Origin: a virus
Taxonomy: Duplodnaviria; Heunggongvirae; Uroviricota; Caudoviricetes
DNA: 40,486 nucleotides
Virus record (IMG/VR): IMGVR_UViG_2526164661_000012
Direction: 5' to 3' (one strand)
This document shows positions 10,535-11,065 of this stretch, one piece after another. Position 1 is the stretch's first letter; the number at the start of each line of letters is the position of its first letter. The position numbers were made by a program, and so were the translations under genes. The notes below the pieces were generated by a model. It was given only the letters and a program-made list of their open reading frames with translations. It had not been told where the DNA came from and did not search any database.

Positions 10535-11065
10535 TTAACCTTGTATAGTTATTTGAATATTTTCTTCATTAACACCAAAGTATAGGGCTAGCCCTGCTTT
10601 TGCCTCCTGAAGTGTTAACGGCTTAACTACATTTTCTTCTTCTTCTTCGTACTCATCACCCGCTTGATCGACAATCGAATTAGTCGGGGTTAATTTTGGA
10701 AGAGCTTTAAATTCCAACTTGTCAGCCTCAATGCCAATGTCTTTGAGGTTGCGATAAGATACGGGATTCCGATTACCATCCCATTGTCCTGGGATGTCAA
10801 TTTCAGCATAAGAATTGATGTTTATGATCCAGCGTTTAGGGTTTTCTGGAGCCCTGCTTACTCCCGAGATTCGACCGATCATAAAAGCATGATGATGTTT
10901 TGCTTCTTGTGATCCCCAGTCCTTTCTCGAATTTTGTACACAAACTAAATATTCGTGCTTAGCTGCATGGCTGGCGTCAAGTCTCCATGCTTGGCTTCCC
11001 CCTGTGTTCAAAATCTCTGTTAAACCACGAGCAGTAAGTACAGTAATACAGTTGGTAGTAGCCAT
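10535..11065 (-). CDS. Hypothetical protein in accessory region (acidic EEEEE tract)
   Basis: 176-aa ORF in AT-rich DNA, opposite strand to early operon; position equivalent to P2 tin/old. Confidence 0.5.
   Translation of the reverse strand: MATTNCITVLTARGLTEILNTGGSQAWRLDASHAAKHEYLVCVQNSRKDWGSQEAKHHHAFMIGRISGVSRAPENPKRWIININSYAEIDIPGQWDGNRNPVSYRNLKDIGIEADKLEFKALPKLTPTNSIVDQAGDEYEEEEENVVKPLTLQEAKAGLALYFGVNEENIQITIQG

Follow-up and report, generated by a model that had tools for sequence, protein, structure and literature searches.

The 40,486-nt stretch of viral DNA analysed here (the window) holds a 186-like member of the P2 group, and its features are collected in Table 1. Between the replication gene A (gpA) and the portal gene Q lies a minus-strand open reading frame (ORF) for a 176-aa protein, which starts with ATG and has exactly the extent and strand given in an earlier, preliminary description of this DNA. 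The position of cos, taken from the ends of linear phage records, is about 11450/11451: the linear record of Salmonella phage SEN8 ends at window position 11450, and those of Midge, SI22 and Cartapus end nearby. The inferred cohesive-end sequence is GGCGTGGCGGGGATACGAG (11451-11469), and GGCGTGGCGGGG, which starts at 11451, resembles the cohesive end of P2 and 186. Because cos maps to this point, the packaged genome has the ORF as its rightmost gene, and cos separates the ORF from the cargo that follows.

Table 1. Coordinates of the target ORF, its protein parts and surrounding features in the window; the last three rows refer to other loci that carry a homologue
Feature	Position	Strand	Remarks
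Integrase	1-1131	-	
186-type CI repressor	2800-3741	-	
CII/CP76	4030-4593		
D12 Dam methylase	5740-6483	+	
gpA	7310-9682	+	
Small phrog_698 ORF and DinI-like gene	9728-10268	+	
Perfect LexA box, CTGTAAATATAAACAG	9777-9792		only one in the window
Strong hairpin	10271-10313		RNA dG -23 kcal/mol, z -3.9; in the gap that separates the ORF from the converging DinI/Tum-like gene
CDS of the 176-aa protein (target ORF)	10535-11065	-	stop codon 10535-10537
C-terminal module, residues 148-176	10538-10624	-	29 aa; consensus PLTxxEAKxGLAxxFGVxxxxIxITIxG
Linker, residues 123-147	10625-10699	-	variable in length and sequence
N-terminal domain, residues 1-122	10700-11065	-	predicted PUA-like beta-barrel
Shine-Dalgarno-like GGGG	11076-11079	-	10 nt upstream of the ATG
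Predicted sigma-70-type promoter, TTGACT-N17-TAAACT	11112-11140	-	about 45 nt upstream of the ATG
cos region, non-coding	about 11327-11494		about 170 bp; common to 1,271 E. coli genomes; conserved region 11327-11480
Gene for the 360-aa HExxH protein	11783-12865	+	
Portal gene Q	13000-14046	-	
Sel1/TPR gene, locus L018	3816-4406		
Sel1/TPR gene, locus L019	1156-1746		
Sel1/TPR gene, locus L012	8542-9123		

The cos-proximal interval between gpA and gpQ is a hotspot of P2-like elements, and tin and old lie in the same slot (Rousset et al., 2022, PMC9122126). By position the ORF belongs to this hotspot, being placed between the replication gene and the portal gene and next to cos. The earlier assignment to the equivalent of the tin/old slot agrees with its place as the gene nearest to cos on the gpA side. 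The proposal that the slot holds variable cargo was borne out by a survey of the E. coli genomes with the cos region, 8 of 1,271 of which carry the ORF, all at the same site; phage 500465-1 and similar close relatives run from DinI directly into cos without it. The cos region divides the hotspot into a pre-cos and a post-cos slot that vary independently. The ORF was also said to be transcribed against the early operon. It is indeed convergent with gpA and with the phrog_698/DinI-like pair, but its converging neighbour is a LexA-box-controlled DinI/Tum-like SOS unit and not strictly part of the early operon. In this unit (9775-10268, plus strand), the LexA box precedes the small phrog_698 ORF (probable start 9837) and the DinI-like gene, an arrangement that looks like the LexA-controlled Tum/SOS operon of phage 186.

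The 176-aa ORF is a real gene under strong purifying selection. It has 74 close homologues, and an exhaustive HMM search recovered 999 cluster representatives of its family at E<=1e-3 and 768 at E<=1e-10. Compared with orthologues in other prophages and on plasmids, its dN/dS is 0.06-0.18 (Nei-Gojobori). A reading as a chance ORF or a pseudogene is ruled out by these values. The protein (computed pI 5.4, net charge -6) is matched over its full length by phrog_37247, a family of unannotated function (E 6.3e-94, residues 1-176 against profile positions 1-189 of 189). It has no match in Pfam or NCBIfam, and the defence-system HMM scan proposed in the preliminary description returned no PADLOC v2 match at E<=1. 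Homology to a structural or regulatory phage protein, which was held to contradict a role as anti-phage cargo, was not found in the Pfam, phrog and PDB-sequence profile searches. Searches for papers on the RefSeq accession or on stand-alone PUA-like defence or anti-defence proteins found none covering the family. The DNA had been called AT-rich, and this holds relative to gpA (52.6% GC) and the portal gene (50.7%); the ORF, at 41.9%, is only moderately so, and the neighbouring HExxH gene is far lower (33.0%).

The predicted signals around the ORF point to a 'moron'-type accessory gene that would be transcribed from its own sigma-70 promoter, independently of the lytic operons. The promoter hexamers are kept as TTGAC(T/C) and TA(A/T)ACT in the orthologous prophage loci, where the surrounding sequence has diverged. 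Downstream of the gene, the strong hairpin is a probable bidirectional terminator. The approximately 220 nt between the hairpin and the stop codon (10314-10534) contain only a 59-aa ORF with a GTG start (10336-10515, minus strand), which has no RefSeq annotation in identical loci. This stretch is not part of a conserved module, because the orthologous Enterobacter locus has only about 80 bp there. An Rfam scan of positions 9000-14000 gave one match only, at chance level.

In an alignment of 40 family members the protein has three parts: a conserved N-terminal domain, a variable acidic linker and a conserved 29-aa tail. Invariant positions are T11, W27, V41, N45, H57, A60, F61, R78, W95, R99, P101 and Y104. 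An AlphaFold2 model has a mean pLDDT of 84.4, with most blocks of the N-terminal domain at 87-97 and a tail helix at residues 152-163 at 84-90; linker residues 127-144 are predicted to be disordered (pLDDT<50). The acidic tract reported earlier is present as EEEEE at residues 140-144, within a 22-residue linker stretch of net charge about -8.6, but it is not a conserved motif. A role for it as a functional motif was rejected, since the linker varies in length and sequence across the family. Acidity of the linker is general (median charge -4.7 over 18 residues); it carries the negative charge of the protein, and the N-terminal domain is roughly neutral. The tail was found only in family members and always with the N-terminal domain among about 10,800 six-frame ORFs from all fetched loci, and a tblastn search of its consensus against phages gave one chance match.

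The absence of a recognisable motif, noted earlier, is true at the level of sequence, but the modelled fold is recognisable as a base-reader domain. A Foldseek search of the PDB matched the ASCH domain of TRIP4 (probability 0.99) and also ZmASCH, YTH domains and PD-T4-3. Another PDB fold search matched ASCH, THYN1 and the McrB N-terminal domain, and the fold also resembles the m6A-reading YTH domain. On this structural evidence the N-terminal domain is assigned to the PUA-like beta-barrels of the EVE/YTH/ASCH class. The scores of the fold matches are moderate, and a search of the BFVD viral fold collection gave only weak matches, to uncharacterised or ASCH-annotated phage proteins. None of the 40 family members matches the EVE (PF01878), YTH (PF04146) or ASCH (PF04266) profile even at E<=10, and a profile search of PDB sequences found nothing at E<=10. 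Because the scores are moderate and no profile connects it to EVE, YTH or ASCH, the family is regarded as a distinct one within the PUA-like fold class. As modelled, the protein is small, acidic and cytoplasmic, and consists of a barrel, a flexible acidic linker and a 29-residue helix-strand tail.

The place of ASCH domains among the best structural matches raises an enzymatic reading, in which the barrel would be catalytic, like the ASCH N4-acetylcytidine amidohydrolases or ASCH ribonucleases, and would modify or cleave a nucleotide, RNA or a DNA base. This is unlikely. The 120-residue domain is unusually rich in invariant polar residues (T11, N45, H57, R78, R99 and Y104), as an enzyme might be, and ASCH proteins are reported to act as ac4C erasers. 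Weighing against it, hhalign found no profile similarity to E. coli YqfB, an ASCH protein (probability 0.1%, with an approximate YqfB sequence). The ASCH motif is GxKxxExR, and on inspection by eye it was not seen in the alignment consensus of the family. Members are, moreover, widely spread on mobile elements and lack metabolic neighbours.

The family comprises about 1,000 clusters at 50% identity, nearly all of them proteins of 160-190 aa with the same three-part layout. In a second large search with the N-terminal domain profile, the matches listed were exclusively proteins of about 170 aa without Pfam domains. Among the 150 best representatives, two carry a nuclease or Abi domain in place of the tail: P0204 (426 aa) joins the N-terminal domain to DUF3427 and HNH_2, which by its domains is the layout of a modification-dependent restriction enzyme, and P0208 (429 aa) joins it to AbiTii. 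A further protein, P0106 (224 aa), has the N-terminal domains in tandem. Gene copies split between frames occur in Endozoicomonas (L027, 6001-6503) and in one alphaproteobacterial MAG (L050, 6001-6520), which suggests a frameshift or a pseudogene. A 20-kb Nitrosotalea contig (L045, L047) has two copies about 12 kb apart.

Carriers of the family are diverse. In PLSDB it was found in 193 plasmids, 163 of them mobilizable and most of them 4-9 kb long, either ColE1-like or from Acinetobacter; on small plasmids (4-6 kb) it is often the sole gene outside the backbone. Other carriers include the type IV secretion operon of an ICE, a small integrase-bearing element, chromosomal islets and another P2-like prophage, where one member occupies a different cargo site. 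A set of 35 loci spans Proteobacteria, Myxococcota, Nitrospirae, Planctomycetes, Chloroflexi, Acidobacteria and a Nitrosotalea archaeon. The phage collection yielded the family in 2 records only, Brevundimonas jumbo phages of lytic type, at 28% identity.

This distribution bears on the idea that the protein serves maintenance or regulation, reading a methylation state (for example hemimethylated GATC) and tuning the replication, partition or expression of a plasmid or phage. The position as sole accessory gene on plasmids of 4-6 kb would suit such a role, as would the likeness to YTH domains, the Dam methylase encoded by the prophage and the divergent arrangement with a ParA-type gene that recurs in three distant taxa. 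The reading is nevertheless quite improbable. The gene is missing from the vast majority of the related P2-like prophages and ColE1-like plasmids, so it is not a backbone function. Furthermore, family members are found in organisms (an archaeon among them) and settings whose replication systems are unrelated; no DNA-binding motif can be recognised in the protein, and its N-terminal domain is not basic.

No same-strand partner gene adjoins the ORF, which confirms its description as an orphan. A survey of the surroundings of the gene at about 40 loci (132 proteins) turned up only backbone functions of mobile elements, such as integrases, relaxases, ParA, TraD and transposases, along with scattered defence genes, and no constant partner gene. 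Orthologues with 84-100% identity lie in P2-like prophages of E. coli, Enterobacter and metagenomes, and the post-cos cargo beside them varies: retron St85, a HIRAN pair, a STAS-like gene, an AAA_15/AAA_21 ATPase pair or three genes of unknown function. In the window this slot holds the HExxH gene, which was never found beside the ORF in the orthologous loci. The 360-aa HExxH protein weakly resembles Peptidase_M48 (E 1.6e-5), the phage-exclusion protease Lit (NF007238, E 0.002) and PADLOC peptidase_U41 (E 0.027), and may be an abortive-infection protease. None of 5,426 complete E. coli genomes matches its gene region.

The ORF and this divergent Lit/M48-like gene across cos might in principle form a two-gene system, as they lie next to each other, point away from each other on either side of cos and share a lower GC content. 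Such a pairing is extremely improbable. Since at least five other cargos, and never this gene, fill the post-cos slot next to orthologues of the ORF, and since the HExxH region is absent from the E. coli genomes, the two are not one system. The lack of a recurrent partner across the family and the difference in GC (42% versus 33%) agree with this, and together with the differing cargos they essentially exclude it. A second gene does accompany some homologues: in small enterobacterial plasmids and one island, a Sel1/TPR-repeat gene (193-196 aa) follows 4 bp downstream, and two of these proteins that were compared are 53% identical. The window has no trace of it, so it is regarded as an accessory of one sub-branch only.

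Among known systems, the EVE (PH1033, THYN1), YTH (YTHDC1, YTHDF2) and ASCH (TRIP4, ZmASCH) proteins are likewise stand-alone PUA-like reader domains. The ORF protein differs from them in having no detectable sequence or profile similarity and in being borne on mobile elements, and the acidic linker and the conserved C-terminal tail are not known from these three families. In the EVE survey of Bell et al. (2020), stand-alone EVE proteins are described only beside restriction systems. PUA-like readers also occur in type IV restriction enzymes such as VcaM4I and TspA15I (EVE-HNH) and the 5hmC-specific PD-T4-3 (GIY-YIG). The ORF protein, by comparison, has only the 29-aa tail after its reader. 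Because it has no nuclease or other catalytic domain, it cannot by itself be a restriction enzyme, and no nuclease gene lies next to the ORF in the window or in the orthologous loci.

In E. coli immunity, the PUA-like domains of Metis MisA and PUA-Cal-HAD sense m6dAMP (bioRxiv 10.1101/2025.11.05.686725; 10.64898/2026.01.15.699771). Compared by architecture alone, these sensors have fused effectors (an NAD+ diphosphatase, a transmembrane domain and Calcineurin-CE) and partner genes (MisB and HAD), whereas the ORF protein has neither. The tin and old genes of P2 share with the ORF the slot at the right end between gene A and cos, a lower GC content typical of cargo and an expected expression in the lysogen. 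They are likewise oriented against the replication genes, and P2 Tin acts without enzymatic activity. The ORF protein has a different fold; as no Pfam or PADLOC family matches the ORF, none covering Old (ATPase-TOPRIM) does. A last group for comparison is ArdA, Ocr and Arn, which like the ORF protein are small, acidic, devoid of enzymatic domains and carried on plasmids, ICEs and phages. Its negative charge, in contrast to theirs, is concentrated in a disordered linker and not spread over a DNA-shaped surface, and none of the three is among the matches listed in the two PDB fold searches.

The reading favoured here, although tentatively, is that the ORF is an exclusion or immunity gene of the resident element. 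It is a real gene with autonomous, lysogen-type expression signals, a hotspot position on the tin/old side and variable presence (8 of about 1,270 genomes), and it is independent of its neighbours, as the changing post-cos cargo illustrates. The fusions to HNH and AbiTii put the N-terminal domain where an immunity protein has its sensor, and the sensing of modified bases or nucleotides by PUA-like domains in Metis and PUA-Cal-HAD provides a precedent. The resident carriers, namely plasmids, the ICE, islands, the small integrase-bearing element and prophages, would all gain from survival of the host.

In the mechanism proposed for this role, the barrel would most likely recognise a modified nucleobase, which could be flipped out of a nucleic acid or belong to a free nucleotide. 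The pocket would be lined by invariant aromatic and polar residues, for which W27, W95, F61, Y104, N45 and R99 are the candidates. Because the protein has no catalytic effector domain, its action would be stoichiometric: it would occupy or sequester its ligand, or work through the tail, for which docking, oligomerisation or recruitment of a host factor are conceivable. The reader would thereby detect or block incoming nucleic acid that bears a foreign modification, much as a type IV restriction enzyme would if only its sensor part, and not its nuclease, were present. Several observations weaken the exclusion or immunity reading. The killing or blocking step is left unexplained, because there is neither an effector domain nor a conserved partner gene, and the PADLOC, Pfam and NCBIfam searches gave no match. 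The nuclease and Abi fusions are rare, small mobilizable plasmids carry the family far more often than phages do, the protein is acidic as are many anti-restriction proteins, and the roughly neutral charge of the N-terminal domain argues against generic binding of nucleic acid.

Since the family resides mainly on small mobilizable plasmids and not in phages, counter-defence or plasmid biology fits this distribution about as well as defence does. As a counter-defence protein, the ORF product would be a free-standing version of a host sensor domain and would protect its own carrier element. It could keep type IV or PUA-guided nucleases away from modified DNA, Dam-methylated DNA for example, act as a decoy or soak up an alarm signal of the m6dAMP type, and its acidic linker might add DNA mimicry. 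Such a function is possible though doubtful, and exclusion or immunity is considered somewhat more likely. It would suit carriers that have to establish in new hosts; most are small mobilizable plasmids, and the ICE, with the gene in its transfer operon, and the two jumbo phages of lytic type also belong here. It would also suit a small acidic protein without an effector domain, comparable in charge to ArdA, Ocr and Arn, whose gene has its own promoter at the genome end in a prophage with its own D12 Dam methylase; PUA-like m6dAMP sensors exist and are antagonised by proteins of mobile elements. Several points count against it. The effector-fused relatives point to the defence side, the prophage copies are among cargo expressed in the lysogen, and an m6dAMP sponge would be of little use to a small plasmid or prophage that leaves host DNA intact. 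The listed PDB fold matches include no known anti-restriction or sponge protein, and a 2026 survey recorded known anti-defence genes in only 28 P2 elements.

More speculatively, the family as a whole would be an effector-less, PUA-like, one-gene conflict module that acts purely by binding, with the tail as a switch or adaptor. Its members would either coat or block invader DNA that is hypermodified or methylated, amounting to restriction without cutting, or disarm PUA-guided host immunity by sequestering an alarm signal such as m6dAMP or by shielding modified DNA. PUA-like domains have recently been recognised as parts of bacterial immunity that read modified bases and even free methylated nucleotides, and have been known so far mainly as sensor modules joined to nucleases, NADases or phosphatases. 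What is new, as judged from sequence and domain content, is the apparent use of a PUA-like reader without an attached effector in a widespread and strongly selected family that Pfam, NCBIfam and PADLOC do not cover. Many small plasmids have it as their only cargo, and P2-like prophages carry it in the classic tin/old slot. Should it protect the cell, it would amount to a minimal immunity gene that needs no cutting; should it protect the mobile element instead, it would represent a new class of anti-restriction or anti-sensor protein. Either way it may be a new one-gene player in the conflicts among bacteria, plasmids and phages.

The prophage carries further genes of note. In the early operon, the D12-class N6-adenine (Dam-type) methyltransferase gene is followed by a gene for an unannotated 276-aa protein (6480-7310), and the pair stands before gpA; it is also present in the ORF-carrying Enterobacter prophage (L057). 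The methyltransferase would gain relevance should m6A be the ligand of the reader. Three minus-strand ORFs of 162, 154 and 179 aa (1143-2797, 29-33% GC), placed between the genes for the integrase and the 186-type CI repressor, have no Pfam or PADLOC match and possibly form a second cargo slot. In the late region, the interval 21300-22150 is low in GC (33.6% at 21501-22000) and includes a 172-aa ORF on the minus strand (21325-21843); it may be a third cargo site.
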